A stretch of DNA of 60,401 nt from Candidatus Thorarchaeota archaeon (GTDB taxonomy: Archaea; Asgardarchaeota; Thorarchaeia; Thorarchaeales; Thorarchaeaceae), in NCBI GenBank assembly GCA_016933575.1, contig JAFGAR010000015.1, forward strand, positions 1-60,401, given 5' to 3'. A program made the translations under genes and the position numbers. The notes below the pieces were generated by a model, which saw nothing but the letters and a program-made list of their open reading frames with translations, had not been told where the DNA came from and ran no database searches. Of this stretch, positions 1 through 27,690 are shown in pieces (position 1 is the first letter of the stretch; each line of letters starts with the position of its first letter).

Positions 1-226
1 AGAAATTAATTAGAAGCCAATAAGGAACAATTTCATTGAATGTGGAATTGATCACAATTTCTACTTCATTGTCTTCACAAGTTGATTTAAAATCAGTTCC
101 TTTAGATGTTCCGTCTGCAGTCATAGGCGCAGGAGTGGTGGGCAGTCCCTCACTCACAGTGATCTGGTGGACCCTGAGGTCGGAGAGGGTATAGGTCGAA
201 TAGCGCTCTGCTCGGATGGGGAAGTA
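1..226 (-). pseudogene. Orphan C-terminal cassette 4 (type B arm), 5'-truncated, runs off the left window edge
   Basis: Manual translation of the minus strand gives YFPIRAERYSTYTLSDLRVHQITVSEGLPTTPAPMTADGT|SKGTDFKSTCEDNEVEIVINSTFNEIVPYWLLINF. The arm is nearly identical in protein to that inside 2135..3619. No start codon; open to the edge; not in the ORF track. Confidence 0.85.
109..226 (-). repeat. Type B homology arm, direct repeat of 2872..2989
   Basis: 118-bp manual alignment, about 17 mismatches (~86%), mostly synonymous; GC-rich. Confidence 0.92.
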
Positions 227-241
227 TGATAATTATTGATG

Positions 242-781
242 TTATTGATCTAATTCATGAAGTATTCTTTTGGTTATGATACCTGCTTTGTCGTTTCTGT
301 GACTCAGCTCACTTAGTTTATTCTTTGCTTCTAGGTTTCCAAGCTTGGACTCGTTATACAGATAGAGGACCAAGGGACGCATTTTTTTATCTGTGAGTTC
401 CTTGTCCCTATAGATTTTTGATTTTTCAAAATAACCATCGATGATTCCCCAGAGAAGAAATGATGGACCCAAAAACCACGTTAGACCTATTAGTTCAGCA
501 GCCTCGTCCATCAAGGTAATGAAAAGAATACCCCAGAAAAGCAAGGCCATGCATGAATACAAGAATACGTACAAAGTGATACTTCGAAAAAGGGTATTGA
601 TATGTTGAGAATACCACTTTTTCATGCGAAATGTAATGTTTGATTGTTTGTGCGTTTCGTTCTTAATTTCTGCAATATCATCAGATCGCAGAGTGTAAAT
701 CATCCACAGAAGTATTGACTCAATAGATACTATCGATACAATAGCTACGATCACATCAAATGTAGTTGCCATTTTCATCAC
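242..781 (-). CDS. Small membrane partner (putative immunity/cognate) protein of cassette 3; 3 TM plus C-terminal RND-x-x-G helical tail
   Basis: Starts 12 nt after the stop of 794..1822. Hydrophobic helices. Tail SHRNDKAGIITKRILHEL resembles IDRNDEVGKEAQKLWNEL of 1734..2129. Confidence 0.75.
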   Translation of the reverse strand: MMKMATTFDVIVAIVSIVSIESILLWMIYTLRSDDIAEIKNETHKQSNITFRMKKWYSQHINTLFRSITLYVFLYSCMALLFWGILFITLMDEAAELIGLTWFLGPSFLLWGIIDGYFEKSKIYRDKELTDKKMRPLVLYLYNESKLGNLEAKNKLSELSHRNDKAGIITKRILHELDQ

Positions 782-793
782 ATCATTATAGTT

Positions 794-1822
794 TCATAAC
801 AGATACGATAAGAAAAGTGCAATTGCAATTGTAAAACATACAATTGCCAATGCGAACCCAACGACATATATTGCATAATGGGTCCTTAAAACAGCACCTC
901 CAAGTCCATCAAGAGCTTCATTGCAGAATATCTTTTCAAATGCAGCCCCAGCACTACTCCAAAACGGGTCATGTGTTTTAAGTGTCATGTCTACACCCCT
1001 TTTCCCAGATATTGCGAGTAACAAAAGAGCAATGGCAATTGCTAAGAAAGTTATACCTGCTTTCCATGGCGCCATAGCACTGTTTAAAACAGCATAGATT
1101 AGAAAACCGATATACACCAGAGTTCCTGCAACTGCGGCCATCAGAGATAACCAAAACCAGCCCTCGGAAGAATGAGTAATGTCAATTGCTAATAGTCGTG
1201 GAATTGTCCATAATACAGACATCACAATGAACCCAATCAAAATTCCCATATCTGATAGCCATGCATTTTCTGCCTCATCCATTAGATCATCGGATTCTTG
1301 AGAAGTCATTTCCTCTGCACCATAGAAGGTGTAAGAGAAATCACTAATAGAAGCCGAACCTAACAAATCTATTGTTCCATGAATATTAAAAGAAACATCT
1401 GAATTAAATGTTTTACTAACAATAACATGGAGATTAGGCCACAAACCCGTCCAATAGGTGACTATTTCAAGAATTGCTAATGACAAATTATTGCTCAATG
1501 TTGTTTCAAATTCAAATCCAATGCTCTCACTTGTTCCATCATTATCATCCGGTTCCGGCACCAGGGTCTCCTGGGTAGCAGAGAACTGGATGACATGGAG
1601 GCGCATGTCGTTCATGGCGTAGCCAGAGTATCTCTCCATCCGGATGGCCAGGTACTTGATCTGGCGATAGGGGTTGGCCACTGCCCCCATGTCCCAAATA
1701 TCCTCACGCAGCATGTAGTTGTAGAAGTATGTATTAGATTGATGACTCCTCTGAGGCCAGTTCATTCCAGAGTTTCTGTGCTTCTTTGCCAACTTCATCA
1801 TTCCGATCAATGAAATATTCAA
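794..1822 (-). CDS. Orphan C-terminal cassette 3 (type A arm plus variable multi-TM C-terminus); homologous part begins at ~1695
   Basis: DMGAVANPYRQIKYLAIRMERYS...IQFSATQETLVPEPDDNDGT matches the big gene. It is followed by YWTGLWPNLH and 4-5 hydrophobic helices. The 1696..1822 part overlaps the neighbouring gene and is probably fortuitous. Confidence 0.85.
   Translation of the reverse strand: MNISLIGMMKLAKKHRNSGMNWPQRSHQSNTYFYNYMLREDIWDMGAVANPYRQIKYLAIRMERYSGYAMNDMRLHVIQFSATQETLVPEPDDNDGTSESIGFEFETTLSNNLSLAILEIVTYWTGLWPNLHVIVSKTFNSDVSFNIHGTIDLLGSASISDFSYTFYGAEEMTSQESDDLMDEAENAWLSDMGILIGFIVMSVLWTIPRLLAIDITHSSEGWFWLSLMAAVAGTLVYIGFLIYAVLNSAMAPWKAGITFLAIAIALLLLAISGKRGVDMTLKTHDPFWSSAGAAFEKIFCNEALDGLGGAVLRTHYAIYVVGFALAIVCFTIAIALFLSYLL
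1533..1695 (-). repeat. Type A homology arm, inverted copy of 12380..12542
   Basis: 163-bp manual alignment, about 19 mismatches (~88%). Confidence 0.93.
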
Positions 1823-2129
1823 GGATGTCTAAAATCTCGTCCTTTGATGGTTTTCCTCTCCGTATCATTCTATCGACTGTCCGGCGGAGGACTGTTTCAG
1901 GTCTATCTTCCTTCCTCATCGTGGACTCGAGAAGAATTGTGTACCCACGAATGCCCTGTTCACTATTTTTGTATGTGCCCTTGTTAAGATAGAATAGGAT
2001 GGCAAAGAGAGCAGTAAAGAATGCCTTCGATAGATCGTTTATTATTATGAACCATAGTGTTAGGCAGATAAGTCCTATTACTAATATTAGTCTGAGAGTG
2101 GGCCAGTATTTCATTTTTTGTTCAGTCAT
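1734..2129 (-). CDS. Small membrane partner (putative immunity) protein of cassette 2; 2 TM plus RND-x-x-G helical tail
   Basis: The ATG of MTEQK at 2129 lies 5 nt after the TGA of 2135..3619 and is preceded by GGTGAG. The ORF-track start at 2219 overlaps the upstream gene. Confidence 0.78.
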   Translation of the reverse strand: MTEQKMKYWPTLRLILVIGLICLTLWFIIINDLSKAFFTALFAILFYLNKGTYKNSEQGIRGYTILLESTMRKEDRPETVLRRTVDRMIRRGKPSKDEILDILEYFIDRNDEVGKEAQKLWNELASEESSI

Positions 2130-2134
2130 CAATC

Positions 2135-3619
2135 TCACCCTTGAACACTCATGATAAGATGATACACGAAGAGACCAGAGAATAGAGCTAATGCGCCTAG
2201 CAAGATTACACTTCCCCATTTAGTACGTGGACCTGACGATACTTCTTCTATCCATGGTAGCCAGATTCCAGCTCCACAAAGATGGATTTCGAAAACTACT
2301 CCTAAAAGAACTGCGGTCGTCGCTCCAAGTACATTCTTCAATGTTTTCCAACCAAATATGACTAACACAATCATAAGTGCTATTGCAAAGTATCTCCAAG
2401 CTGCAGTTCCATGTGAAATCATGCCACTTGCTAGATCATTTTCAATCACCCCAATTGGAGCAAGATAGGCTAGAATTGTTAGACCTACTGCGACTCCTAA
2501 TGCTACCGCGCACCATGGGCTACCGGGCATAATGGTTGATGCCATATCAAAAATATTTATAGCTACAACTGCAGATTGAAGCAGCATTGCAAAAATTGAA
2601 GCAAAAACAAAGTTAACAGCATTGGATAGGAAATCATCAAATGAAGGTCCTCCATTCACCTGAAGTGCAATAAGCTGAGTAATACCAATGAGATCTATTG
2701 TTAGATGGATCTCTTGTATCAAATCCAAAACAACAAAGCTTAGTAGCAAGTGGCATACTGGCCAGAAATTCTCCAAAGCCCACCAACTTAATAGGTTATT
2801 TCTAATGAAATTTATTCCAGTTTCTACTGCATTTTGTGTCAGTCTATTCTCATTGATGTTACCACACCAGCTTCCATCTGCAGTCATAGGGGCAGGAGTC
2901 GTGGGCAGCCCCTCGCTGACGGTGATCTGATGAACTCTGAGGTCGGAGAGGGTATAGGCTGAATAGCGCTCAGCCCGAATGGCGACGTAGGTGATGACCC
3001 GCTCGGGGTTTACCACGTCCCCAAGGCTCCCTGTTGCATACCCAGGAATCTCGTACTGCATCTCACCATCGTGGACCCAGAGCTTGCCTGTACGATGAAT
3101 GGACAATGTTGTGGTTGGCGTTGAATCATACTGCGCGCTTTCACCCTGCGGATAGTAAGCCACATGGAAATAGCCCTTGACATCCCAGGCCCACGCATCA
3201 CCCCAGTAGACCATGAGGACAATCTGCATGTTCTCATCGAACAGAGCCACATTAATCGCCCCCATCTGCGAACTGTGTTGTACAAGCTCTCCCTCCACCG
3301 AGAACTCACTCAGGTCTCCTAGTCTGAATGGATCATTTAAGACATGCACGAAATTCGGACCATGCCATCCGCTTGGACTATTAGGTATTGCAGATGGATA
3401 GAGGTAGCTAGAGCCAATGGATAGTTCGCCATAGGTAGTAACACCCCATGGAAATCCATTGTCAAGTGGAAAGTTGCTGTTACTGCTACAGTCGTCACTG
3501 AATGGTGGCGGAGGAATTCGTCTATTGGGGTCTGCAAGGATGTTGATGTCCTGAATTCGCATATCGACAATTGGTGTGGTAGAATACTGACAACCAAGTA
3601 GTACTAGATACTTGATCAC
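2135..3619 (-). CDS. Orphan cassette 2: end of repeat 2, a complete alternative repeat domain (type B end) and a variable multi-TM C-terminus
   Basis: The upstream in-frame LAECSNASRVIKY matches LGQCYNASRVIKY of the big gene. Contains GWHGP, ALFDEN, YWGDAW, GYFHVAYYPQG and PAPMTADGS, then WALENFWPVCH and hydrophobic helices. No signal peptide. Confidence 0.88.
   Translation of the reverse strand: MIKYLVLLGCQYSTTPIVDMRIQDINILADPNRRIPPPPFSDDCSSNSNFPLDNGFPWGVTTYGELSIGSSYLYPSAIPNSPSGWHGPNFVHVLNDPFRLGDLSEFSVEGELVQHSSQMGAINVALFDENMQIVLMVYWGDAWAWDVKGYFHVAYYPQGESAQYDSTPTTTLSIHRTGKLWVHDGEMQYEIPGYATGSLGDVVNPERVITYVAIRAERYSAYTLSDLRVHQITVSEGLPTTPAPMTADGSWCGNINENRLTQNAVETGINFIRNNLLSWWALENFWPVCHLLLSFVVLDLIQEIHLTIDLIGITQLIALQVNGGPSFDDFLSNAVNFVFASIFAMLLQSAVVAINIFDMASTIMPGSPWCAVALGVAVGLTILAYLAPIGVIENDLASGMISHGTAAWRYFAIALMIVLVIFGWKTLKNVLGATTAVLLGVVFEIHLCGAGIWLPWIEEVSSGPRTKWGSVILLGALALFSGLFVYHLIMSVQG
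2872..2989 (-). repeat. Type B homology arm, direct repeat of 109..226
   Basis: Encodes YVAIRAERYSAYTLSDLRVHQITVSEGLPTTPAPMTADG. Confidence 0.92.
3137..3177 (-). repeat. 41-bp core repeat (GYFHVAYYPQG), inverted copy of 12221..12261 and direct copy of 5116..5156
   Basis: 3 mismatches in 41 bp versus the big gene; the 25 bp AGGGCTATTTCCATGTGGCTTACTA are identical. Confidence 0.9.
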
Positions 3620-3638
3620 TCTAGATGCATTGGAACAT

Positions 3639-4001
3639 TCAGCAAGTGTGATTGATATCCTCTTTCTGTAAACCTTCCAATCTAAATGGAACCGTTAGTG
3701 CTGCGAAAATTACAAGTGCTATCCATGGCAAGCTTAGCATAACAACATGTTCAAACATCGCAGGTTCATACAGCCATTCATACACATATGCAGTCATGAA
3801 AGGCGCAGTAAGTACAATTACACAATACAAACCGATACTTAACCGAGTATGGATGTATTGTTCGAAAATGCGATGAAGTGTACGAAATACTTTTCTGTCA
3901 GAAGTTTGGAATTTTCCACTAGGATGCAAACCGATTGCTGCACAAGATATTCCAATCAGAAGTAGTAGGATACCTACACCAATTGCAAGAAGGAGGGTCA
4001 T
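3639..4001 (-). CDS. Small 3-TM partner (putative immunity) protein of cassette 1
   Basis: 120 aa with a GGAGGT Shine-Dalgarno upstream. Similar size and hydropathy to 13238..13606. Confidence 0.78.
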   Translation of the reverse strand: MTLLLAIGVGILLLLIGISCAAIGLHPSGKFQTSDRKVFRTLHRIFEQYIHTRLSIGLYCVIVLTAPFMTAYVYEWLYEPAMFEHVVMLSLPWIALVIFAALTVPFRLEGLQKEDINHTC

Positions 4002-4095
4002 GGAATTACCTCCCTTCTAATTTGTTGGAGTATTTGCGCAGGCATTTTTCCATTCTATTAGACATGGACACTTTGTTTCTATATAATATCATTAC

Positions 4096-5142
4096 CTACC
4101 ACCAACCTTGTATCATTCCATAGTAAGTTGCAATTGTGATAACAAGGAGAATCATCATTGTCACAAAAACAATTGCATTTGCACGGCCTGAAGATCCAGT
4201 GCTGCTATTAGATCTTGCCCAACCACCACTGAAATAACCAAGAGCACCTAAGAATCCAAGTGGAGAAAAGTGTAAGAATATTGCTGAAATAAGCCCAATA
4301 GCCAATACTGAGAGCGCCGCAAAAAGAAATGTCCATTGAGCATCACGCTGGTTCATTTCCATTTGTTTCACAGCAAAAACCAGCGACCACATGAACAATA
4401 AATAGATTGATGTCGTAATTATGCAGGCTTCAACGACGATTCCAGTGGCTATGTATGGGATAAGGCACAACACCTGTAAGACTAACAAAGAAACCCACAC
4501 TCCTACAAAGAGATATTGAACCACGTCATTCCAAAATGTGGAAGTCGAGGTCTTTTCTACCACACAAGAATAGAACATTCCTGCTTCTTCTTCTGTAATC
4601 TCTTCTGCACCTCCAAATTCTGACTCCACATTCTGAATTGAAACCAGTCCCAATAAATCAACAATTGACTGAATGAGAATCGATACATCTAGAGAGAGGC
4701 TTATTGATACATCTATATGTAGGACTGGCCAAGGACCTGTCCAATAGATACTCAATGATTGATATGCTTGCTCCATCATTGTTGTTGTATCATTATCATG
4801 ATTACTAGCTATTCCATCAGCTGATGAAACGGAAGTCCCATCCGCCACCATCGGCTCCGGCACCAGGGTCTCCTGGTCAGCGTAGAGGTTGATGGTGTGG
4901 AGGCGCATCTCATTCATATCATCAGCGGAGTAGCGCTCCATCCGGATGGCCAGGTACTTGATCTGGCGATAGGGGTTGGCCACTGCCCCCATATCCCCGC
5001 TCTGGATGGTCCCGCCCTGGTCCTTGATCTTGTAGGTCACGTGACCACCTGTCACTCGGAACTCTCCGATCCGGTAGAAGGAGGTGTAGATGTAGCCCGT
5101 TGTATCGGAGACCGTGCTTCCACCCTGTGGGTAGTAAGCCAC
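4096..5142 (-). CDS. Orphan C-terminal cassette 1 (long type A arm plus variable multi-TM C-terminus)
   Basis: The first ~103 aa are almost identical to the second half of repeat 3 of the big gene, ending PEPMVADGT. YWTGPWPVLH and hydrophobic helices follow. An in-frame stop lies shortly upstream, so there is no N-terminus. Confidence 0.9.
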   Translation of the reverse strand: MAYYPQGGSTVSDTTGYIYTSFYRIGEFRVTGGHVTYKIKDQGGTIQSGDMGAVANPYRQIKYLAIRMERYSADDMNEMRLHTINLYADQETLVPEPMVADGTSVSSADGIASNHDNDTTTMMEQAYQSLSIYWTGPWPVLHIDVSISLSLDVSILIQSIVDLLGLVSIQNVESEFGGAEEITEEEAGMFYSCVVEKTSTSTFWNDVVQYLFVGVWVSLLVLQVLCLIPYIATGIVVEACIITTSIYLLFMWSLVFAVKQMEMNQRDAQWTFLFAALSVLAIGLISAIFLHFSPLGFLGALGYFSGGWARSNSSTGSSGRANAIVFVTMMILLVITIATYYGMIQGWW

Positions 5143-5156
5143 ATGGAAATTGCCCT
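4834..5156 (-). repeat. Long type A homology arm, inverted copy of 12221..12543
   Basis: 323-bp ungapped manual alignment, about 37 mismatches (~88%); ~55-62% GC in sampled 60-nt lines. Confidence 0.95.
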
Positions 5157-5193
5157 TATTCTCTCCAGATGAACTGTTACATTAGAGCTTCAG

Positions 5194-5313
5194 ATTCTGA
5201 TTCATCAATATAACGGGATCGACAACGCACGAGTAATAGACTCGATCGTCAGCATTGAAGAAGATATAATGACATTCATCAAAATCGTGGAGGATTTTCT
5301 CGGTGAATCGTGA
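5194..5313 (+). pseudogene. C-terminal remnant of a HEPN (DUF86-like) toxin gene
   Basis: Translates ILIHQYNGIDNARVIDSIVSIEEDIMTFIKIVEDFLGES*, resembling the RNxLxHxYxxID end of DUF86 but lacking the RN and everything upstream. Its stop overlaps the GTG start of the MNT gene. Confidence 0.7.
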
Positions 5314-5695
5314 TAAGATACGTAGAGATCCGCATTTTCTCAGTAAGAGGGAAGTAGTCCTCTTTGGATCTCAGGTCTCTGGAACTTTCGATTCGCGTTC
5401 TGATGTAGATATAGCTATTATAACACGCTCCCAAGACAAAGATGAGATGATGCATATTCGCCTAGATGCTCTAGGTAAGGCTCCAGATGGCTACGACATC
5501 CAGATCTTTGAAGAGCTACCTTTAGTCATCAAAGGTGCCATCATCGAGGAATTTGAAGTTCTCTTTGGAGATTCCCTTGAGATTGGTATGTACTTCTTCT
5601 ATATTCGAAAGTTTTGGGAAGACTACAATCATCGAATTGAAGTTCCAACAATTGAAGAGATTCAGAGGGGATTTGCAGAAGGTCAAAATCCATGA
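5303..5695 (+). CDS. Minimal nucleotidyltransferase (MNT, pol-beta superfamily), HEPN-MNT antitoxin type
   Basis: LFGS...SDVDIAI (GS plus DxD), third Asp in YDIQ; 130 aa. Confidence 0.9.
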   Translation: MNRDKIRRDPHFLSKREVVLFGSQVSGTFDSRSDVDIAIITRSQDKDEMMHIRLDALGKAPDGYDIQIFEELPLVIKGAIIEEFEVLFGDSLEIGMYFFYIRKFWEDYNHRIEVPTIEEIQRGFAEGQNP

Positions 5696-5790
5696 TCTAC
5701 AAGTTCTTCTTGTTATTCATTATGCCCTTGGGTATCTCCATGTGTCATAAACTTGAAGTGTTTTGGATTTGATAATACGAATACGACTTA

Positions 5791-7053
5791 TCACTTCTTC
5801 AATTGTTCAAGTAATTCCTTTGCTCTCTCGACTTTGACATTCTTTTCTTTGACTAGACGTTCAGCAATGGTATCAACCATATCTCCACGAGCTCCAGCAG
5901 TTGCTGCAACATTTCTTGCGTGTAGTGCCATATGCCCCTTTTGGATCCCCTCTGATGCTAATGCACGGAGTGCTGCAAGGTTCTGGGCAAGTCCAACACT
6001 AGCAATGATGTGACCCAATTCAAGCGCAGTTTTGACTCTAAGGATCTTCACACAAGCTCGTGCCACTGGGTGCACTTTTGTTGCTCCACCAACGAGACCA
6101 ACAGCCATTGGAAGTTCGATGGAACCAACAAGATTTCCATTCGGGTCTATCTCATACTTTGTAAGAGATCCATACCCTTCCCGTGCGGCATAGCTATGAG
6201 CTCCTGCCTCAATTGCTCGAAAGTCATTCCCCGTGGCAATTACGACTGCGTCAATGCCATTCATTATTCCCTTATTATGGGTTGCACACCTGTAGGGATC
6301 TGCCTCAGCAAATGCCCATGCTGTGATAATATCATTTACTACCTCAGCTCCACCAAGAAGTTCCTTGTCAAAGGTAGCCCTCACGCGAACCAATCGATAT
6401 TCTGCAAGGTTTGATAGAATTCGGAGAATCACTCTTCCGCCTGTTATCTTTTCGATGCGTGGCGCCAAAGCTTCAGCCATTGTGTTTACTGCATTTGCTC
6501 CCATTGCATCTCTTGTATCTACAATGAGTTCGCAGACAAGCATCACACCAACCTTTGAGTCAAAAATGCGAACTCTGAGGTCTCTTGCGCCGCCTCCGAA
6601 CCGGACAAGGATTGGGTCTTGCTCATTAGCAAGCTGAAGAAGTTCTTCCTTTACTTCAATTATCCTGTTCTTTGCAGCATAGGGTGCAGGAACTTCTACA
6701 GTCTGAATCTGTGCTATCATTAAAGGACCTGTATCTGTTGCAACGAACCCGCCAAGGTTTCTAGCAATTCTCGCTGCATTACTTGCTGCGGCAACAACAG
6801 ATGGTTCTTCGATTGCCATTGGTATCAGGTAGTCTTTTTCATTTATCTTGAAATTAGTCGCTATCCCTAAGGGAAGGGTCATTGCTCCAACAACATTCTC
6901 AATCATATGGTCCAAAACTTCTAGGTCAACCTTACCTGGATTCACCAATGGTTCAAGATCTTCATCTCCGAGTCCAGTTACTTCCTTCAGTTTCTTCACA
7001 CGTTCTTCGCGCGTCAATTTGTAAAATCCTGAAACCTTTGAATCTTCGACCAT
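5791..7053 (-). CDS. hmgA: Hydroxymethylglutaryl-CoA reductase, class II
   Basis: Motifs ENVVG, EEPSVVAA, DAMGAN, THNKGIMNG, GIQKGHMALH. Confidence 0.96.
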   Translation of the reverse strand: MVEDSKVSGFYKLTREERVKKLKEVTGLGDEDLEPLVNPGKVDLEVLDHMIENVVGAMTLPLGIATNFKINEKDYLIPMAIEEPSVVAAASNAARIARNLGGFVATDTGPLMIAQIQTVEVPAPYAAKNRIIEVKEELLQLANEQDPILVRFGGGARDLRVRIFDSKVGVMLVCELIVDTRDAMGANAVNTMAEALAPRIEKITGGRVILRILSNLAEYRLVRVRATFDKELLGGAEVVNDIITAWAFAEADPYRCATHNKGIMNGIDAVVIATGNDFRAIEAGAHSYAAREGYGSLTKYEIDPNGNLVGSIELPMAVGLVGGATKVHPVARACVKILRVKTALELGHIIASVGLAQNLAALRALASEGIQKGHMALHARNVAATAGARGDMVDTIAERLVKEKNVKVERAKELLEQLKK

Positions 7054-7148
7054 GAAAAGACCTCGACAACTTTGATAGTCTGTTTCGACATTACCATAAA
7101 AGAATGTCCATCGTACAATTTATCTTGATTCATCAGACTCATAGATAC

Positions 7149-7583
7149 ATGTCGTATAACTCGGGTAGGGGCATAGGTGTCTGTCTTTCAATTACATTCG
7201 GTATAATGACCATCGTGTTTGGTCTGATGTTTGTCTTCTTGTTTTCTACAATTGATACGTTTTTCCAATCAATTTCGTGGTATGTATTTTGGGCTGGAAT
7301 CGTGTTGGTAATTGTTGGTGTCGTATTGATTCCTAGTGCAAGAAATGAAGCACGTACACGAAGGAAAATTCTAGAGATAGCTGCCGTGAGAAAAGAGGTG
7401 ACAATCTCTGAAATCAGTGCAGAAACTGGTATAGATAGTGAATATATTCGAAATCTAATCACTACCCTTTTGATAAATGGAATGCTCTTTGGGTATCTTG
7501 AGGGTGACCTATTCGTTCGTGACACTTCTGCACGACCCAGATATTATGGTGGACAAGCGGGATTGTTTGGTGCCCTTGGGTAA
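7149..7583 (+). CDS. 2-TM membrane protein with C-terminal PCI-like winged helix
   Basis: Two hydrophobic helices, then VTISEISAETGIDSEYIRNLITTLLINGMLFGYL. Likely start MSYNS at 7149 (ORF track 7104). Confidence 0.7.
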   Translation: MSYNSGRGIGVCLSITFGIMTIVFGLMFVFLFSTIDTFFQSISWYVFWAGIVLVIVGVVLIPSARNEARTRRKILEIAAVRKEVTISEISAETGIDSEYIRNLITTLLINGMLFGYLEGDLFVRDTSARPRYYGGQAGLFGALG

Positions 7584-7664
7584 TTTTCTGCTTGTGCGAA
7601 GATATAGTTTGGAACCATAGGGTTTATTTCACAAGCATTTGACGATGCAGACTGGTCATGTATC

Positions 7665-9182
7665 ATGAGTTCAGAACGAGACTTTAACGATGTCATCATG
7701 GGTTTAGCAAAGAAGAGAGGGTTCTTCTGGGGTCCTAGCCCGGAGATATATGGTGGTAGTTCTGGATTCTATGATCTCGGTCCACTTGGCAAACTACTAA
7801 AGAACCGACTAGAGAACGCTATCCGGTCCTCGTTTGTAAAAGCCAACTTCTGGGAAGTTGAATGTCCCACGGTCTCTCCTGAGGCTGTCTGGAAGGCTTC
7901 TGGTCACCTTGACGGATTCATAGACCCTGTGACACAATGTACAAAATGCGAACAAGTATTCAGAGCAGACAATCTCATTATTGAACAATCTCCTGATGCC
8001 CAGATAGCTGGTCAAACTGTAGACCAACTCACCGAAACCATCAAGAAACTTGGTATTGTATGCCCTGCATGTAAGAGCCTCCTGGGTCCAGTTGAAACAT
8101 ACAATCTTATGATGAAGACAAGGCTAGGTCTCGTTCAGGATGCATATCTCCGCCCCGAAACCGCAACATCAACATACTTGCTTTTCAAGAGGTTCTTGAC
8201 CTTTTTCAGAGACAAGCTACCAATGATGGTCTTTCAGATTGGTAAGGCTTATCGTAATGAGATTTCTCCACGACAGGGAATGCTTCGATTGAGAGAGTTC
8301 ACTCAGACTGAGGGTCAAATATTCATTCTTGAGGAAGATGAGCAAAACTGGCCGCAGTATGATTCTATCAAGACTGTGGAACTTCCTCTCCTGTCAAACA
8401 TTGCTCAACAAAAGGGCTCTACACAGCCAGTTCGAATGAAGATTTCTGACGCTATCAAGAAGGGTCATTTTCAGAAACCTGCGTATGCATGGTGTGTGTA
8501 TCTTGCGTACTCTATATTCAGAGGTATGGGCTTTTCTGAAGAGAAACTACGACTTCGCCAACACTTGAAGACTGAGATGGCGCATTATGCGCAAGACGCA
8601 TGGGACTTGGAAATTCAAACACAGAGCTTTGGATGGGTGGAGTGCTGCGGTATCCACGACCGTGGTAACTATGATCTCACTCGTCATCAGGAATTCTCGA
8701 ACGAGAAGATGAGTGTGAGTGTGAATAAGCAACCTGTCATCCCAAATGTTCTTGAAATTGCATTTGGCATCGAGAGACCTCTATTCTGCTTGATTGACAA
8801 TTCTTTCCAACCTGAGAGTGAGGCTCGTGATACGGATTGGCTTCAGTTCCCACCCGAAGTAGCTCCGATTCAAGTTGCAGTATTTCCTCTGATGGGTAAG
8901 GATGAACTACTTCAACCTGCACGTGAGATTTACGATTCTATTATAGACGTAGGTTTCATTACGCAGTTCGATGTCGGTGGTTCGATAGGCAAGAGATATA
9001 GACGTCAGGACGAGGTTGGTACACCTTTTTGTGTCACTATCGACTATACAACTCTTGAGGATGGCACAGTTACCATTAGAGACCGTGACTCAATGAATCA
9101 AATCCGTGTACACAAAGATGACATTATCCAAGTGTTGAGAAGACTTATTCGTAGGTCAGTGCTCTTCGATTCTCTGAAGTAA
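7665..9182 (+). CDS. glyS: Glycine--tRNA ligase (archaeal/eukaryotic type)
   Basis: Motifs IYGG..GFYDLGPLG, YLRPETA, YRNEISPRQG..RLREFTQ, GSIGKRYRRQDEVGTP. Confidence 0.97.
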   Translation: MSSERDFNDVIMGLAKKRGFFWGPSPEIYGGSSGFYDLGPLGKLLKNRLENAIRSSFVKANFWEVECPTVSPEAVWKASGHLDGFIDPVTQCTKCEQVFRADNLIIEQSPDAQIAGQTVDQLTETIKKLGIVCPACKSLLGPVETYNLMMKTRLGLVQDAYLRPETATSTYLLFKRFLTFFRDKLPMMVFQIGKAYRNEISPRQGMLRLREFTQTEGQIFILEEDEQNWPQYDSIKTVELPLLSNIAQQKGSTQPVRMKISDAIKKGHFQKPAYAWCVYLAYSIFRGMGFSEEKLRLRQHLKTEMAHYAQDAWDLEIQTQSFGWVECCGIHDRGNYDLTRHQEFSNEKMSVSVNKQPVIPNVLEIAFGIERPLFCLIDNSFQPESEARDTDWLQFPPEVAPIQVAVFPLMGKDELLQPAREIYDSIIDVGFITQFDVGGSIGKRYRRQDEVGTPFCVTIDYTTLEDGTVTIRDRDSMNQIRVHKDDIIQVLRRLIRRSVLFDSLK

Positions 9183-9351
9183 ATCTCTGGCATGAAATAC
9201 TAGAAATTCTATAATTTTTGAATTAGAACATCATTATTGACAATGAGACTATACTATTAATAGAACTGGTTTCCGGTGGATTTATATTGCTCTACAAGTA
9301 ATAAAATTCCAGTGCCTTTACTGAAAATCGTGGTTTCGTGAGGACAGCAAA

Positions 9352-12300
9352 TTGGGACGCAAGGGCGTTCTTTCAAAGAGAAATGTGGTCTTACTATGTA
9401 CCACTTTTGTGACACTTGTACTTTCAATGCAGCTGGTAGCAACAACTGCATGGACAGCAGATGTTGCCAATGCTGGACCGGGAGTGACTATCGTTCAACT
9501 CTCGGATGACAGTGATTCTGACTGGGCGACGCAGGATCTGATTAGTCGTCTATCTGAGTTCATTCACGATGATATATTTTTCAGAGATAGAATCAGTGTG
9601 ATAAAGACTGACAACCCACATGTCGTTGTATCAATTGCTGACAATATTGTGATTTACGTTTCACATGGAGGTCCTCTTGGCATTGTCACAGGGAAACATT
9701 TGACAACCTGGTCCAGAATGGCGCAGATTGTGGAGAACTCAAAAGCATCAATTCATCTCTTCACCGCCTGTTCCAGTAAGAACATCATTAGACACGGGAG
9801 TGCTGATTCAACTAAGCAGCTCTACACTGTGCCAGGCGCACGACCCGCAGAAGTGACCAATGTCGAGATCACAACAACCGTCCTACTTGCTCTGGGATTT
9901 GATACAGAATATGCAGACCAGTATCGCACATCAGAACTGACCAAGGCAAAAGAACTCGTCGAGACTGGAAAGAGCGTTCACATCATGGTCTTCGAAGAGA
10001 TCATTCTGACCGAGATTGAGAATATTGATAATTCATACAATGAGACTTGGACTGATGATTTCAGGGTCTATCGCGAAGCTGTGGTTGTGACATATACCAG
10101 TACTGGAGATTTCTACTTACTACCGTATGATCTAAAGAATGATCTAATTCATTACTATAGGAATTTTGTTGATACTGATGGTGTTGACGCACTCAGAGAA
10201 CTCGGACAACTTTACATTACCTACACGAAGAACTATTACATCAACTCAACGTACACTGGTGAGGGATCATCCCAGCTCTTACCTGACTCACTTGAATTCT
10301 CTATTACAGAAAACAATGGTTTTAGTGATTATTATGAAACAGCACTATTCTTCACAAGCGGTGGGTGGGTAAATGAGACTCCAGTTTTCACTGGAGGGAC
10401 CTATTCGGGATGGTTGAAGTACGCGGGAGACCACATCGAGTTCCAACAGGTTGTGGTTAATGTCACTGCCAGTGGTTCAATACTTGCTGCAAATGAAACA
10501 ACACTGGTAGATTCAATCTCCCTGCAACAGATTGATGCAGGTGGTACATATCTACAGCGGCAAAAGATTGACGGTGTCTGGCAAGAGCCTTCTGTAGGTC
10601 GAAATCCAAGACGGACTGGCGGACTCTGGACAGATCCCGGTATCAAAGCTGACTATGAGTATGAGTCAGGATGGACACCTCCATTGGGGTACACCGCGAG
10701 CACAGGCGTAATTCATTCCAGTGGTGAGTACATCTATATCGACTCCATTCCCTCTGGGACTTCATGGCATGGACCCTCCTTTGTGAACACATTGCCATCC
10801 TATTTCAGAATGAACGATTTCGGAAGTTTCTCAGCGAATATCTCCATGGTTCATGGAACTGGTGTCAAGCTTGCCAGAGCATGCGTCACCCTCTATGATG
10901 AGAATAAGAAGGTCGCGATGGTTCTCATGATATCTGATGCCTCTGGAGACCGTCAGGAAGAGGCGTTTTATGCCTATTACTATCATGAAGATGGGACTGG
11001 TGCTGGTCTGGGTTCGCAGGTGTTCACTGGCGATACATCAGGCATTGTCCAGATTCGTTATGACCCGCATCAAGGGATTTATGCAGATGTTCCCGGAAAA
11101 GATGAAGTGCGCCTCTTCAAATGGACAGAGATCGACCCTGAACGGGTCATCAAATATGTGGCAGTTCACTGCTACCGCTACAGTTCGTATACACTGAATG
11201 ATGCGCGGTTTAACAGTATTCAGGTGAATTATGCAGGGTCTGAGTACACAGTTCTTCACGACAACTGCAATGATGTGAACAACTTCCACCTTGACGACGA
11301 TTTCGGGTATGGTACATATGCATACGGTGACCTCTACGTTCCTTCTGGGCAGAGCTACATGTCCTTTACAAACATCCCCACAACACCATCAGGTTGGCAT
11401 GGTCCTGATTATGTTCACGTTCTCGATAGGCCATTCAGGCTCTGTCAACTCAGCGAGTTCTCGGTCATTGGCGAGCTTGTTCAGAGCTACTCAACCATGG
11501 GAAACACCTACGTGGCACTCTTTGATGAGAATGAACAGATTGCGATGCTGGTGTACTGGGGCGATGCATGGGCCGGGAGTAAGAAGGGCTGGTTCAACGT
11601 CTATTTCTACCCCCAGAATGGCGGTTCTTACAGTCAGGAGTCCGGTTATATCTATACATCATTCTTGAAGACCGCGACTCTCTGGTGGGGGTCCTATCCC
11701 GGAATTGAGGGGTCAATCTATTCAAAGATCGACGGTACCTCAAAGCAACTTGGTCAATGCTATAATGCATCTCGTGTGATAAAATACGTAGTTCTCTTAG
11801 GCTATCGGTACTCACACTATGGTCTTGTGGATATGCGGATTCATGATATCAATGTTGTAGCGGACTTGAAGTGGAACCAACGTGCATTGGTGCTAACTGA
11901 TGATTGTGAAAATATGGATAACTTTGAGAACGACCCCACTTTCGGATGGGGCACGGTCTCAGCAGGAGAACTCTATGTTCCCTCCGGTCAGAGCTATATG
12001 ACCTCTACAGGTATTCCAACAACACCCTCTGGCTGGCACGGGCCCACATATGTCCACGAACTTGAGGCTCCGTTCAGTCTGTACAACCTCTACATGTTTA
12101 ATATTCATGCTGAGCTATTCCAGTACTACGACCAGCGGGGTCTCACAGAGATTGCTCTGTTTGATGTGGACAAACAACCTGTTCTGAAAATCTATTGGGG
12201 CGATTCTTCTGAAGAGATGCAGGGCTATTTCCATGTGGCTTACTACCCACAGGGTGGAAGCACGGTCTCCGATACTACCGGCTACATCTACACCTCCTTC

Positions 12301-13236
12301 TACCGGATCGGAGAGTTCCAAGTTGTTGGTGGCCATATGATGTACAAGATCAAGGACCAGAGCGGCACCCTCCAGAGCGGGGACATGGGGGCAGTGGCCA
12401 ACCCCTATCGCCAGGTCAAGTACCTTGCCATCCGGATGGAGCGCTACTCCGCTGATGATATGAATGAGATGCGCCTTCATGCCATCCAGTTCTCTGCTAC
12501 CCAGGAGACCCTGGTGCCGGTGCCGGAGGATAATGATGGGACTCTTGAGGGTAAACTAGATAATTGTGAATCTCAGGGATATGAATTAAGTGAATATTAT
12601 GCGAGCCAAGCTAATTCAGAATTACTCATTTATTGGACTGGACCATGGCCTGAACTGCACTTTCAAAGAAGTAGTCCAAGTCGTGAATCAAATACAGAAT
12701 TTCACCTGAAAGCAAATCTCATTCATGAAGTTACTCTATGCAGTGCAAATGAAGGCAATTACAACGAACCTCAAGGAGGTGAATTCTATAATGAGGTTGT
12801 GATTGAATTTTTGGTAATTGAATGCACTGTGTGTGCACTCATGTTTCTTGCTCTTCTTGCTGTTGATTGCTACCAAACATCACTTGGAACTAATTGGGTT
12901 GCTTTACTTGCTTCTGCGATATTAGCTACTTCAGCAATATTTAGTGGATTATTACTTTTGAAATATTTCTACGATTCTGGATTCGATATCGAATGGGTAG
13001 GTTCCATGTTCTTTTTGTTAGCAGTTGAAATGTTGACTTGGGCATGGGGTGATATTATCCTTTGGATCTTCATTGGGATGACTCTTGGTCTACTTTTTCA
13101 GTCAGTCAAGAAGATTGCTTTCAAGAACGCCTGTTCCGCACTTGATTTTCTCTGGATTAAGAAAATATACTTAACAACCGCTGCAGTGTTTTTCTTCATA
13201 ATGGCAGAATTATGCTATACACAGGGGTATTTATGA
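9352..13236 (+). CDS. Large secreted polymorphic protein: signal peptide, caspase/CHAT-like peptidase motif, three ~200-aa repeats and an exchangeable multi-TM C-terminus
   Basis: N-terminal basic then hydrophobic leader. IYVSHG (H105) and LFTACSS (C140). Three repeats with WHGP, (L/Y/F)D, IKY, RYS and D/E-x-R motifs. Sharp GC drop after PVPEDNDGT. Alternative C-termini lie at 1..5156. Confidence 0.9.
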   Translation: MGRKGVLSKRNVVLLCTTFVTLVLSMQLVATTAWTADVANAGPGVTIVQLSDDSDSDWATQDLISRLSEFIHDDIFFRDRISVIKTDNPHVVVSIADNIVIYVSHGGPLGIVTGKHLTTWSRMAQIVENSKASIHLFTACSSKNIIRHGSADSTKQLYTVPGARPAEVTNVEITTTVLLALGFDTEYADQYRTSELTKAKELVETGKSVHIMVFEEIILTEIENIDNSYNETWTDDFRVYREAVVVTYTSTGDFYLLPYDLKNDLIHYYRNFVDTDGVDALRELGQLYITYTKNYYINSTYTGEGSSQLLPDSLEFSITENNGFSDYYETALFFTSGGWVNETPVFTGGTYSGWLKYAGDHIEFQQVVVNVTASGSILAANETTLVDSISLQQIDAGGTYLQRQKIDGVWQEPSVGRNPRRTGGLWTDPGIKADYEYESGWTPPLGYTASTGVIHSSGEYIYIDSIPSGTSWHGPSFVNTLPSYFRMNDFGSFSANISMVHGTGVKLARACVTLYDENKKVAMVLMISDASGDRQEEAFYAYYYHEDGTGAGLGSQVFTGDTSGIVQIRYDPHQGIYADVPGKDEVRLFKWTEIDPERVIKYVAVHCYRYSSYTLNDARFNSIQVNYAGSEYTVLHDNCNDVNNFHLDDDFGYGTYAYGDLYVPSGQSYMSFTNIPTTPSGWHGPDYVHVLDRPFRLCQLSEFSVIGELVQSYSTMGNTYVALFDENEQIAMLVYWGDAWAGSKKGWFNVYFYPQNGGSYSQESGYIYTSFLKTATLWWGSYPGIEGSIYSKIDGTSKQLGQCYNASRVIKYVVLLGYRYSHYGLVDMRIHDINVVADLKWNQRALVLTDDCENMDNFENDPTFGWGTVSAGELYVPSGQSYMTSTGIPTTPSGWHGPTYVHELEAPFSLYNLYMFNIHAELFQYYDQRGLTEIALFDVDKQPVLKIYWGDSSEEMQGYFHVAYYPQGGSTVSDTTGYIYTSFYRIGEFQVVGGHMMYKIKDQSGTLQSGDMGAVANPYRQVKYLAIRMERYSADDMNEMRLHAIQFSATQETLVPVPEDNDGTLEGKLDNCESQGYELSEYYASQANSELLIYWTGPWPELHFQRSSPSRESNTEFHLKANLIHEVTLCSANEGNYNEPQGGEFYNEVVIEFLVIECTVCALMFLALLAVDCYQTSLGTNWVALLASAILATSAIFSGLLLLKYFYDSGFDIEWVGSMFFLLAVEMLTWAWGDIILWIFIGMTLGLLFQSVKKIAFKNACSALDFLWIKKIYLTTAAVFFFIMAELCYTQGYL
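10700..12500 (+). repeat. Three tandem ~200-aa intragenic domain repeats (~10700-11235, 11257-11865, 11896-12500)
   Basis: For example YVPSGQSYM...IPTTPSGWHGP.YVH occurs in repeats 2 and 3, and IPSGTSWHGPSFV in repeat 1. Boundaries are approximate. Confidence 0.85.
12221..12543 (+). repeat. Recipient homology arm in the full-length gene
   Basis: Matches 4834..5156, 1533..1695 and 3137..3177 (all inverted) and 13623..13688 (direct). Confidence 0.95.
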
Positions 13237-13237
13237 G

Positions 13238-13606
13238 ATGCAAATTGACTTTATACTAAGAACATCATTGTTTCTTCTAGCATTACTACCAGTAGGACTG
13301 ATTATTCCAACATATTTGGAAGTTGTCACTTGGTTTCTGGGTCGTAAGAGTATGCATGATAAAAATATCTTGAGTATATTCCGTACAAAATCAATTGTGA
13401 TCTGTATTGGATTAATTGCAATATCTATAGTGACCTATTATTGGTGGGGTGTTTTCTGTTACCAGTTCATTATGAGTCCCATACTTGGACTTGGCGCTCC
13501 AATGTTTTCAATCATGCTTATTATACCGTCATGGTTTTGTTTCGTTCCAGTCTTTCGAGAATACTACTCTTCAATAGAGAAAAGAACTAAGAATTCAACT
13601 ATGTAG
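13238..13606 (+). CDS. Small 3-TM partner (putative immunity) protein of the full-length gene
   Basis: ATG 1 nt after the TGA of the big gene (TGAGATG); 122 aa, AT-rich, hydrophobic. Confidence 0.8.
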   Translation: MQIDFILRTSLFLLALLPVGLIIPTYLEVVTWFLGRKSMHDKNILSIFRTKSIVICIGLIAISIVTYYWWGVFCYQFIMSPILGLGAPMFSIMLIIPSWFCFVPVFREYYSSIEKRTKNSTM

Positions 13607-13622
13607 ACATGGAGAATATCAA

Positions 13623-13688
13623 GCCATCCGGATGGAGCGATACTCTGGCTACACTATGAACGACATGCGCCTCCACACCACTAACTTC
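13623..13688 (+). repeat. Residual type A arm fragment with no C-terminal domain attached
   Basis: GCCATCCGGATGGAGCGATACTCTGGCTACACTATGAACGACATGCGCCTCCACACC encodes AIRMERYSGYTMNDMRLHT; the frame closes shortly afterwards. Confidence 0.9.
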
Positions 13689-13881
13689 AATGTTGGGAAT
13701 TCGATTTTTAGGCAGCTAAATCAAGAGTTTTGTCTGAAACATATCTCTTCAATAATTTAAACCTCGTCGAATTTTGGAATACCCTACATCAGCATAACAT
13801 ATTTGTGCAGCACTAGCACGTATGGAACATCCAGTTCGCGCTCAGTCCATATGAGATACGAGCATTTCGAGGTCGAGCTAC

Positions 13882-23625: not shown

Positions 23626-24414
23626 TCATTCTTTCAACTTGCGAATTCCCAGAGCAAACCCAATAAGATTGAATTCCACATGTAGAATAATAGAAGGCAA
23701 GAGGCTTCCTGAGTAGGTCAGAAAAATACCCGCGACAAGACCTAGTATGAATGCTGAGCCCATAAGTACAAATATCGAACCACCCATCTGTTTTGCAGGT
23801 GCTATGTGGACCAGACTGAAGAGTAACGCGGAAACTAGAGCTCCTGCAGTGAGAGAAAAGAGACCAAAGTCAATCGATAATAGTAATGTTCTATCCAAAA
23901 TGCTCTGAAAGAATCCACGAAATAGTACCTCTTCAGAAACACTTGCAAGGATAACAATGACGAAGAAGAATACAATTCTTTCTCGAGTGGCGGATGGTGG
24001 ATTCATTTTTTGAGGTGTTGGAGATAGGCGTTCACTCAATCCTACTGTGATAGCAGCTATTGTCAAACCAACTATACTTAGAAGACTCAGGGTCTCATAT
24101 GGAACCAGTTGAAATCCCCAGAGATCAAGCTGGGTACTTCCAAACATGAAAATTGCGGCTAACGATAGTAGGAGAACAATAGGGCTTACAATAATACTAG
24201 ACATCCATGGATTGACTAATGCCACATTTGCCTCACTACCTTTTCGCTTAGTAATCATCACCATAATGGAAAATGCGACAAAATAGATTGCCATGGAGAC
24301 TGCAAGCCCGATTCCTAAAGCAATGAACCACTCTATCAATGCAGACTCCTCATTTGTTTGCTGATGCAAACCTCCTGATATGCTATATGTTTGAAGCGTT
24401 GAGGATCTGTTCAA
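23626..24414 (-). CDS. CPBP (CAAX protease/Abi) intramembrane metalloprotease
   Basis: EEVLFRG, FSLVH, LHVEFN motifs. Confidence 0.9.
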   Translation of the reverse strand: MNRSSTLQTYSISGGLHQQTNEESALIEWFIALGIGLAVSMAIYFVAFSIMVMITKRKGSEANVALVNPWMSSIIVSPIVLLLSLAAIFMFGSTQLDLWGFQLVPYETLSLLSIVGLTIAAITVGLSERLSPTPQKMNPPSATRERIVFFFVIVILASVSEEVLFRGFFQSILDRTLLLSIDFGLFSLTAGALVSALLFSLVHIAPAKQMGGSIFVLMGSAFILGLVAGIFLTYSGSLLPSIILHVEFNLIGFALGIRKLKE

Positions 24415-24419
24415 ACCAT

Positions 24420-25241
24420 CTATGAAATAGGAAGAATAGATTCATCATTGCGAAGTTCGTTGATAAACAATAATAGCGTCAGTATGAAGGTTAGGATGGG
24501 TATCAGGATAAGTGGATAATAGAATTGGGCATTTAGAAAATAGTGTACTGTATATTCGTAATATGAGAACAAGACAATAGTTACTGACGCCTGATATGGC
24601 AACGTGATAATTGGCCATAATAGGTTGAATAATGGAGAGAAGAATATCATTATCGATGCAAGAGTCAGAAGAAGAGTGCTCGAAGTCGTATTTCGAGTCT
24701 TCAAAAGAATTGCAGCTAAACCGATTTTTGCGAGAATAGATCCGTACTCATAAATAAAATGTAAAAGTTTCGGGTCACTAAGAAACGGAGGAAAACTGCT
24801 AACAAATGATAGTAATAGGTAGACAATATCATCGAATGACATTAAGACAAAGACAATACTAAACTTACTTCCAGTCTTTGAGAGATACCCGTAATAACCC
24901 GTAGCTACTAGACAAGATATTTGAAAATCCCAGGAATGAATTGTATTGAATAACTCATTACTTTGAGTGATTATATCATGGTCTGCAGCAAGAACACCTT
25001 CAATGAACAAGGGATATGTTGCCCAATATGCAAAAATAACCATAATTGCAGCAACAAGACCAATAATCCCTAATGAGAGACAAAATCTGTAGATTCTACG
25101 ACCTGTTATAGGTTGAATTATGTGAATTATTTCATCTCCTCGATCTGACAACTGAACAGCCTCGAAGAGAAGCTTGCAGAAATGGACTTTAAATGAACTT
25201 ACAGTTATAGAACTGCACGTGTACAAGGGTCTCACAATCAC
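24420..25241 (-). CDS. Polytopic membrane protein
   Basis: Multi-TM; GYYGYLSKTGSK. Start uncertain. Confidence 0.6.
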   Translation of the reverse strand: MIVRPLYTCSSITVSSFKVHFCKLLFEAVQLSDRGDEIIHIIQPITGRRIYRFCLSLGIIGLVAAIMVIFAYWATYPLFIEGVLAADHDIITQSNELFNTIHSWDFQISCLVATGYYGYLSKTGSKFSIVFVLMSFDDIVYLLLSFVSSFPPFLSDPKLLHFIYEYGSILAKIGLAAILLKTRNTTSSTLLLTLASIMIFFSPLFNLLWPIITLPYQASVTIVLFSYYEYTVHYFLNAQFYYPLILIPILTFILTLLLFINELRNDESILPIS

Positions 25242-25280
25242 ATGATTGAAATATGAAACCCTTGCATCCGAACCATCTGT

Positions 25281-26429: not shown

Positions 26430-26809
26430 TCGAGTGTCACCTTGGATGATTCACTGATTTCGAATCAGTATGAATAGGCAATTTTCCATTGCAATTAAGC
26501 GTGATGGTGGTCATAGAAGGAGCATTTTCACTCTCATAAGCTAAGTGTCCAATTCTATCAGCTTGCCTAGTTTCTTGTATTCTCGGATTTCGTGCTCTAA
26601 GATACATATTTCGAAAGCGTGAGATTGCACTAATTCCTTATAGTCCTGGTGAGATTTCAAGAACTTCTAATATCATCACATCTGAGGAAAGTCTACCTCT
26701 GTCTATTGTAACAATAGATGGAGGAAATTGCAATTTAGCAAAACAGTTACTCTAAAAAGGGTAAATTATAGAATCCGAGTAACTGCAATAGGCCTAGGAA
26801 GTCAGGATT

Positions 26810-27684: not shown

Positions 27685-27690
27685 TTTTCC

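Follow-up and report, generated by a model that had tools for sequence, protein, structure and literature searches.

Genetic composition of the locus

We analyzed a locus encoding a large surface protein with a variable C-terminus in an Asgard archaeon. The locus is located on contig JAFGAR010000015.1 (C56) of assembly GCA_016933575.1, a metagenome-assembled genome (MAG) of a Candidatus Thorarchaeota archaeon; the whole contig of 60,401 nucleotides (nt) is here referred to as the window. One full-length gene (BIG) for a protein of 1294 amino acids (aa) is present on the plus strand. The minus strand carries a row of silent, promoterless C-terminal cassettes, each followed by the gene of a small partner protein, and the genes for HMG-CoA reductase (hmgA) and glycyl-tRNA synthetase (glyS) lie in between. 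The segment of the full gene that recurs in the cassettes in inverted orientation is here named the arm. The features of the locus are:

2..232, minus strand: 5' part of cassette D, running in frame into contig C38 via an exact overlap of 87 nt
242..781, minus strand: partner of cassette C, 179 aa
794..1828, minus strand: cassette C, 344 codons, arm at 1526-1695
1734..2219, minus strand: partner of cassette B, 161 aa
2135..3694, minus strand: cassette B, 519 codons; a whole jelly-roll repeat is kept, second junction class in common with D
3639..4001, minus strand: partner of cassette A, 120 aa, 3 membrane helices; 34% to the partner of the A-type orphan of the congener G001
4096..5181, minus strand: cassette A, 361 codons from stop to stop, left arm 4834-5194 at its 5' end
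9352..13236, plus strand: full-length surface-protein gene, 1294 aa; orthologs of 1305-1333 aa, all from Thorarchaeota
12183..12543, plus strand: right arm inside the full gene, encoding the end of jelly-roll repeat 3 and the motif AIRMERYS...MRLH...LVPxP..DGT
12469..12479, plus strand: breakpoint of recombination within the arm; upstream of it the full gene resembles A (95-97%), downstream it resembles C
13238..13606, plus strand: partner gene of the expressed tail, 122 aa, about 3-4 predicted membrane helices
13623..13695, plus strand: vestigial orphan consisting of the junction motif alone (73 nt); 94% to cassette C, 91% to F and G
13761..13788, no strand: right edge of the polymorphic insert; from about 13790 on lies the conserved promoter region of the following gene

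The 1294-aa protein starts with a predicted N-terminal signal or anchor helix. Its three central repeats were modelled as ConA-like/CBM jelly rolls (predicted local distance difference test, pLDDT, 86.5), and it ends with a Thr/Pro/acidic linker and a variable tail of 230 aa with 4-5 predicted membrane helices. The junction motif in the arms corresponds to the last strands of the third jelly roll. Homologs were annotated solely as hypothetical or DUF2341 proteins of Candidatus Thorarchaeota / Promethearchaeota. A Pfam search at E<=0.01 gave no family for the complete protein, nor for tail or partner, and look-up of the expressed tail in the ESM Atlas returned no usable match. In a collection of 5.8 billion proteins no same-species relative was found, the best non-self match being 63% identical.

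Tails and partners are organized as modules

The window and contig C38 start with 87 nt that are exact reverse complements of each other (blastn), and joining both contigs led to an intact, in-frame cassette D of 292 codons. The join was confirmed, since the synteny in relatives matches. On C38 the array continues with cassettes E, F, G and H and their partners; a HicA-like gene comes next, and beyond it lie an MFS transporter and conserved genes. In total at least eight silent modules were found, each consisting of a membrane tail and a small membrane partner, and in 8/8 modules a membrane open reading frame (ORF) of 120-205 aa is located directly downstream of the tail.

The eight tails are 230-250 aa each and share only 20-28% identity with each other, the partners 14-26%. 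Over the 60 aa preceding the tail, the current gene and cassettes A, C and F share 70-85% identity. The junction from conserved to variable sequence is sharp; accordingly, the G001 ortholog aligns only over residues 5-1115 (63% identical). Tail and partner of module F were 69% and 71% identical to the expressed tail and partner of this ortholog, and the first orphan and partner of G001 are of the A type. In another lineage, the proteins P0010 and P0011 of two 92%-identical strains differ in exactly tail and partner. Judged from these comparisons, the modules behave as units in which tail and partner are inherited together, and the architecture is that of a polymorphic toxin or recognition system with orphan cassettes of the Rhs/CdiA type. 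By analogy, tail and partner may represent a cognate toxin/immunity or recognition pair.

A second minus-strand orphan array was found in the same genome (C57 258000-265019), with partners close in sequence to those of C38. It contains a tail ORF of 282 codons after a remnant of the signal peptide of the big gene (75%, residues 23-54), which looks like an internally deleted copy, and a HEPN/MNT pair adjoins the array. The HicA-like toxin gene (C38 9153-9488) is embedded at the end of the cassette array; the congener G067 and the sister-species contig L045 carry PIN or PIN-VapB at the corresponding glyS-side edge.

The inverted arms share one frame and are mosaics

The longest pair of inverted arms links cassette A with the full gene (4834-5194 / 12183-12543) over 361 nt with 86.1% identity (E 1.5e-118; repeat search and blastn). 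The arm of cassette C was found as a pair of 170 nt with 87% identity in the repeat search (1526-1695 / 12380-12549) and of 163 nt with 88.3% in blastn (1533-1695 / 12380-12542, E 7e-53). A short third pair of 44 nt (91%) is located at 3134-3177 / 12221-12264. The inter-arm spacing amounts to 6988, 9043 and 10684 nt. Overall, the repeats at the locus are coding homologies of 44-720 nt with about 74-88% identity; short conserved crossover sites were not found among them.

Identity along the A arm was uneven, with 96.9% at 12221-12316, 65.5% at 12317-12345, 95.4% at 12346-12476 and 73.1% at 12477-12543. The arm is composed of a 256-nt core of 93% and a 67-nt flank of 73%, and its longest exact runs are 50, 49 and 40 nt. 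None of the arms contains a gap, and all keep the reading frame of the full gene: position 5181 mirrors 12196 (codon 949, position 1) and 1828 mirrors 12247 (codon position 1). Due to this shared frame, a crossover would give in-frame fusions of about 1309 aa.

An earlier description of the window from the letters alone (here referred to as the sequence-only reading) had placed the full gene on the plus strand and the cassettes on the minus strand, promoterless, each with a partner and linked to the gene by in-frame inverted arms. Our analysis verified this anatomy throughout, with the full gene at 9352-13236 and the cassettes at 5181-4096, 3694-2135 and 1828-794. The 323-nt inverted repeat of about 88% described there has 88.5% identity by block counts, the second repeat (1533..1695 / 12380..12542) was recovered by blastn with the same coordinates, and an inversion span of 7-11 kb agrees with the arm spacings. 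The continuation of the array past the window start into C38 had been overlooked, as had the heterogeneity of the A arm, and the vestige at 13623-13695 was not mentioned.

Within the arm, the full gene resembles A over 12221-12468 and C from 12480 on (maximum chi-square p 0.0015-0.0023). Cassette A is first BIG-like and then F/G-like, and all four combinations of two segments (SADDMNEM or SGYAMNDM with IQFSATQE or INLYADQE) were found among BIG, A, C and F. The arms are thus mosaics produced by recombination, which proves that exchange has taken place at the junction, with crossover and conversion, as well as the timing relative to any inversion, not being distinguished by the mosaics.

The hmgA-glyS block is inverted

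Four genes occupy the region between cassette A and the full gene:

5303..5695, plus strand: MNT-type nucleotidyltransferase (NTase) gene, accessory, inside the inverted block
5791..7053, minus strand: hmgA, single copy, inverted relative to the conserved right neighbour
7104..7583, plus strand: gene of a small CD20-like membrane protein (ORF7104), 159 aa; 52% homolog in the sister genome G023
7665..9182, plus strand: glyS, single copy, inverted relative to the conserved left neighbour on C38

In five congeners (G001, G013, G002, G010 and G006) the gene order is c38_12046, c38_11529, glyS, hmgA, g13855 and then g14627, with no big gene; glyS and hmgA are divergent and hmgA faces g13855. Adjacent and on the same strand, hmgA and g13855 were found in 23/23 congeners carrying both on one contig, and additionally in G067 via a contig overlap. 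The genome analyzed here is the only one in which both genes are on opposite strands, and glyS is also reversed relative to c38_11529. By gene order, the block hmgA-ORF7104-glyS is therefore inverted relative to both conserved flanks, so that at least one inversion took place at this site. That an inversion would carry glyS and hmgA had been proposed in the sequence-only reading, and the comparison of orientation in relatives, run here, bears this out: the orientation is opposite to that in all readable congeners.

The sister genome G023 has the order g13855, hmgA, ORF7104 homolog, glyS, MFS, c38_11529 and no cassette locus, so that the locus was gained, or kept only, in the lineage analyzed here. 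A membrane gene of 363 aa between hmgA and g13855 in G023 and G001 is missing from our genome, as is the ancestral spacer. In an alignment of the spacers the conserved parts were the 3' coding end of hmgA and about 100 nt of the g13855 promoter only.

ORF7104 occupies the roughly 490 bp that separate the divergent genes hmgA and glyS. Its G023 homolog is found at the same place, and in most congeners the gap is 6-40 bp. The NTase gene (5303-5695) is located at the 3' side of hmgA; a 71% homolog is present in G023 2.5 kb away, between c38_11529 and c38_12046.

Modules change strand in a sister species

At the same chromosomal site an ortholog (P0008, 57% identical) was found on the JGI contig L045 of a sister species. 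The left side of this locus consists of Usp, MGMT and three minus-strand cassettes, followed by a 336-nt spacer and the plus-strand gene with its partner. To the right, two plus-strand orphans and a fragment, PIN-VapB, glyS (minus) and hmgA (plus) follow. The arms (9378-9649 / 12974-13245) are 272 nt long, 93% identical and in frame, with an exact block of 95 nt, and enclose the promoter and the N-terminal 2.97 kb only, being 3.3 kb apart. The data on this species stem from the JGI samples 3300057034 and 3300056885.

Contig L047 represents the same species from a second sample. Spacer and N-terminal part were 99.3% identical to L045 over 3859 nt, the tail only 19-23%. The expressed module of L045 (arm, tail, partner of 173 aa and the inner part of the next arm; 1772 nt, 99.3%) is located in inverted orientation in the upstream slot of L047, with breakpoints within the arm (3034-3042) and at the inner edge of the arm (4647-4663). 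The L047 arms are identical over their inner 132 nt, and the sister-species arms are 93-96% identical overall. A single flip from L045 to L047 was ruled out, as the tail of P0047 is only 46% identical to that of the upstream inverted cassette of L045 (L1). The difference is explained either by two nested arm-mediated inversions together with an allele difference or by gene conversion and tail replacement. By either route, modules of this species move between strands through the arms.

The congener G067 carries plus-strand orphans and a PIN gene beside glyS, resembling the right side of L045. Its arm (L038, C89 1420-1627) shares 90-93% DNA identity with L045 13050-13257, compared with 80% for glyS and 75.5% for hmgA. 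Since the identity of the arm exceeds that of both genes, this suggests that cassettes may spread horizontally between species.

The exact 173-aa partner of the sister species was also recovered from five other samples, in each case on a contig of no more than about 1.1-1.5 kb (L051, L052 and three from Logan). In another genus, the 29-kb contig G044 C7 (L036/L037) has cassettes at both ends (1-4150 and 24300-29245) on opposite strands and in convergent orientation, with three genes for very large proteins in between, and may be another two-sided locus. On L048/L049, a minus-strand ORF of 369 aa upstream of P0010/P0011 was considered as an inverted cassette and rejected; it encodes a conserved membrane protein and has no inverted repeats.

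Recombinase genes and strand distribution of cassettes

Profile searches of the whole 85.5%-complete assembly gave a single match to PF00589, on contig C189 and none on C56 or C38, and no match to PF00239. The statement of the sequence-only reading that the window has no site-specific recombinase is in line with these searches, which were empty for both contigs of the locus. RadA is present in the genome. A promoter-bearing segment between oppositely oriented homologous cassettes exists at this locus (A-D on the minus strand, the current tail and the vestige on the plus strand) as well as in L045 and L047.

The view of the same reading that switching is reversible and shufflon-like gained no support. 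Neither a recombinase gene nor short crossover sites were found at the locus, so that it does not qualify as a shufflon; the arms are 86% identical, and the arrays of the order are mostly one-stranded. Evolutionary, recombination-driven shuffling is supported instead.

Assembly of the source contig

The MAG consists of 215 contigs and is 85.5% complete with 6.9% contamination. Twenty contig-end pairs of the assembly overlap by exactly 87 nt, from which a final k of 87 can be deduced for the assembler; some of them are bubbles (C91/C92). The window contains no Ns. The break between C56 and C38 falls inside cassette D just past the junction, and the graph branch there hints at an unbinned variant path of the population.

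The stretch was found in a single run, X1, probably the source sample, for which Logan contigs (k=31, about 13x) were available. One independent contig of X1 spans 5121-10069 and confirms the inner segment. Inside the arms the X1 contigs end at two mirror positions, 5121 and 12256, and the outer junctions are not bridged by any of them. Joints with a change of strand are not listed among them, a comparison of little power with k=31 contigs only, about 13x and several bins uncovered. Two probes were run against a metagenome collection, a 30-mer unique to the full gene and ending shortly before the arm, and the equivalent 31-mer of L045; each gave 0 matches, so that the collection lacks the respective organisms. 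At window positions 5007 and 5011 the sole Logan contig covering that part of the left arm differs from the MAG (T>G, C>A). This pair of bases matches neither the right arm nor cassette F and may be a variant or a further copy.

Exchange at the arms and the probable origin of the inversion

Taking these data together, we consider it probable that this is a two-sided polymorphic C-terminus locus, in which modules are exchanged by homologous recombination or gene conversion at the arms and a reciprocal exchange inverts the intervening DNA. A single surface-protein gene on the plus strand, with a variable membrane-helix tail and followed by a small membrane partner, would be expressed. The at least eight modules on the opposite strand, each opening with a piece of the gene's conserved end, would be silent. 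General homologous recombination or gene conversion at the arms would swap modules with the expressed gene, with no dedicated invertase taking part. Since gene and silent array run in opposite directions, a reciprocal exchange would flip the DNA between, and at least one such inversion would have turned the essential hmgA-glyS pair in this lineage. Both genes would tolerate the inversion since their divergent promoter region travels inside the segment.

Undoing a crossover of 4834-5194 with 12183-12543 restores the ancestral orientation and yields a canonical minus-strand gene (N-terminal part and tail A) with a direct array of orphans behind it. Apart from the cassette arms, no long inverted repeat surrounds the block; at the alternative breakpoints no inverted repeat of more than 8 nt was found. 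Several observations weigh against exchange at the arms as the general explanation. Cassettes sharing a contig are nearly always one-stranded across 87 genomes of the order (G001, G041, G042, G052, G062, G064, G067, G048, G060 and G101), the sole other opposite-strand case there being G044 C7. Arms of 86% identity are a poor substrate for frequent recombination, the arm-mediated route requires a pre-existing inverted module, and conversion and replacement account for the difference between L045 and L047 equally well as nested inversions. Moreover, an illegitimate en-bloc inversion with breakpoints at about 5194/5195 and 13761-13788 yields the identical present sequence in a single event. It would take along the vestige, the partner, the full gene, glyS, ORF7104, hmgA and the NTase gene. 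The ancestor would then have been a one-sided array with the full gene, its partner, the vestige and cassettes A, B, C and so on, all on the minus strand next to glyS; one breakpoint would lie directly upstream of cassette A, the other between the g13855 promoter and the NTase gene, and the arms would be a by-product that never served as crossover sites. The expressed gene, its partner and the vestige on the same strand indeed form the canonical layout, and one-sided arrays are the norm of the family (G001 C7, G042 C12, G052 C221, G062 C77, G101 C38). Such an inversion would nevertheless have occurred without repeats at the required breakpoints, and illegitimate inversions are rarer than repeat-mediated ones. 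It also leaves aside that the two-sided layout recurs at the same site in L045/L047, where arms of 93-96% flank the N-terminal part only and modules change strand at breakpoints located in the arms. We therefore regard the en-bloc event as a serious but unlikely alternative. Alignment of the spacer could not separate both routes because the ancestral spacer is gone. As the arms do recombine, seen from the mosaics, and sister-species modules change strand at arms, we rank the arm-mediated route somewhat higher, and the crossover of this inversion would have been placed in the arms.

If exchange occurs at the arms, the question arises how often. The contig is unbroken through both arms, which indicates that one orientation dominates in the sampled population, and crossover should be rare because the arms are just 86% identical, so that high-frequency switching is disfavoured. 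The events are probably rare and evolutionary rather than a frequent phase switch. A recombinase-independent nested inversion of the sap type, recurrent within populations, in which flips change the displayed tail and two essential genes happen to be captured in the segment, seems quite unlikely to us. Slightly more doubtful still is a frequent, reversible phase variation of sap-like or shufflon-like character, where cells of one population flip repeatedly and express different tails. The promoter and the conserved 5' part do lie between oppositely oriented arrays, and inversion loses nothing. The L045 arms with their perfect block of 95 nt, the identical inner 132 nt of L047 and the occurrence of the exact 173-aa partner on short contigs elsewhere, possibly ending at the arms, would fit such switching as well. 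It is opposed by the unbroken contig, the identity of the arms and the lack of an invertase, and no joints were seen, though the contigs-only data have little power in this respect. Misassembly is also unlikely. That the true genome has the ancestral arrangement and C56 was mis-joined at the repeats is in fact very improbable: the fragmentation and contamination of the MAG, the breaks of the k=31 contigs at 5121/12256 and the unbridged outer junctions would allow for it, but the final k of 87 exceeds the 50 nt of the longest exact match between the arms, Ns are absent from the contig, and the mis-join would have been needed twice and symmetrically.

Comparison with known systems

A shufflon, as known from R64 with Rci and comparable to Hin/Gin inversion, requires a tyrosine recombinase encoded next to it, along with short conserved crossover sites. 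The locus analyzed here resembles the R64 shufflon in that alternative C-terminal segments would be chosen by inversion with nothing lost. It differs in that neither recombinase nor short sites were found and in that its repeats are long, diverged coding homologies.

The sap surface-layer (S-layer) locus of Campylobacter fetus reportedly undergoes nested inversion by general recombination with no dedicated invertase, and whole genes with a near-identical 5' conserved region of about 600 bp are said to be swapped there at high frequency. Both loci have a promoter segment between opposed cassettes with a common conserved region, the segment carries other genes, and nested inversions would reach distant cassettes. 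The locus analyzed here departs from what is reported for sap in its conserved part, which spans 2.9 kb of coding sequence, in its arm identity of 86% (93-96% in the sister species) and in that switching was not observed. By analogy, the mechanism would most resemble the recombination of Rhs/CdiA orphan cassettes combined with nested inversion of the sap type.

This finding concerns an Asgard archaeon, and the Asgard archaea are the closest known relatives of eukaryotes. To our knowledge, almost nothing is known about cell competition or recognition in this group, and reports of surface variation through recombination-driven inversion have so far come mainly from a few bacteria. As the locus shows, a polymorphic tail/partner cassette system in the style of bacterial Rhs/CdiA exists in an Asgard archaeon; it would be rebuilt by homologous recombination. 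Due to the inverted silent array, recombination would reshape the chromosome, with HMG-CoA reductase and glycyl-tRNA synthetase being turned round. The locus provides a concrete case for asking whether archaea use recombination-driven inversion for surface variation.

Rhs/CdiA loci with orphan CT/immunity cassettes (C-terminal toxin modules) have been described (Poole et al. 2011, PMC3150448; Zhang et al. 2012, PMC3482391; Koskiniemi et al. 2014, PMC3967940). In common with them are the large conserved N-terminal part, the sharp junction from conserved to variable sequence, the small cognate gene after each tail, promoterless orphans keeping a fragment of the conserved region, the exchange by homologous recombination and the occurrence of modules in several species. 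In contrast, YD/Rhs or FHA/TPS repeats and any Pfam match are absent, ConA-like jelly rolls are found instead, and the host is an Asgard archaeon. The tails belong to one divergent membrane-helix family rather than to unrelated enzyme folds. Furthermore, the orphan array is inverted, so that exchange inverts DNA, whereas the bacterial systems delete or duplicate.

The ionophore toxins of contact-dependent inhibition (CDI) with membrane CdiI proteins (Halvorsen et al. 2024, PMC11630599) may be the closest functional analogue. They share predicted helical membrane-bundle C-termini of constant size and small, divergent membrane partners (about 20-30% within a family). They differ in that no sequence relationship was detected; toxicity, delivery and immunity may or may not have counterparts at the locus analyzed here. 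The VARTIG module of Thermococcales, which has Ig domains and has been compared to polymorphic toxin systems (Makarova et al. 2021, PMC8416519), is comparable as a large archaeal surface protein with a recombining hypervariable C-terminus and variable downstream genes. Different from our locus, orphan arrays or inverted cassettes are not described for VARTIG, and there is no homology.

Predicted N-terminal domain of the full-length protein

The N-terminal domain (residues 30-340, window 9440-10370) contains H105-G-G-P and C140, which are invariant in 14 homologs. A profile search against PDB sequences gave nothing significant. The model of the domain (pLDDT 59) had SAVED-CHAT (E 6e-4) and caspases (E 3-7e-3) as top Foldseek matches with a template modelling (TM) score of about 0.3, other alpha/beta folds scoring alongside. 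Tentatively, the modelled domain might be a caspase/CHAT-like (clan CD) self-processing peptidase, possibly releasing the tail.

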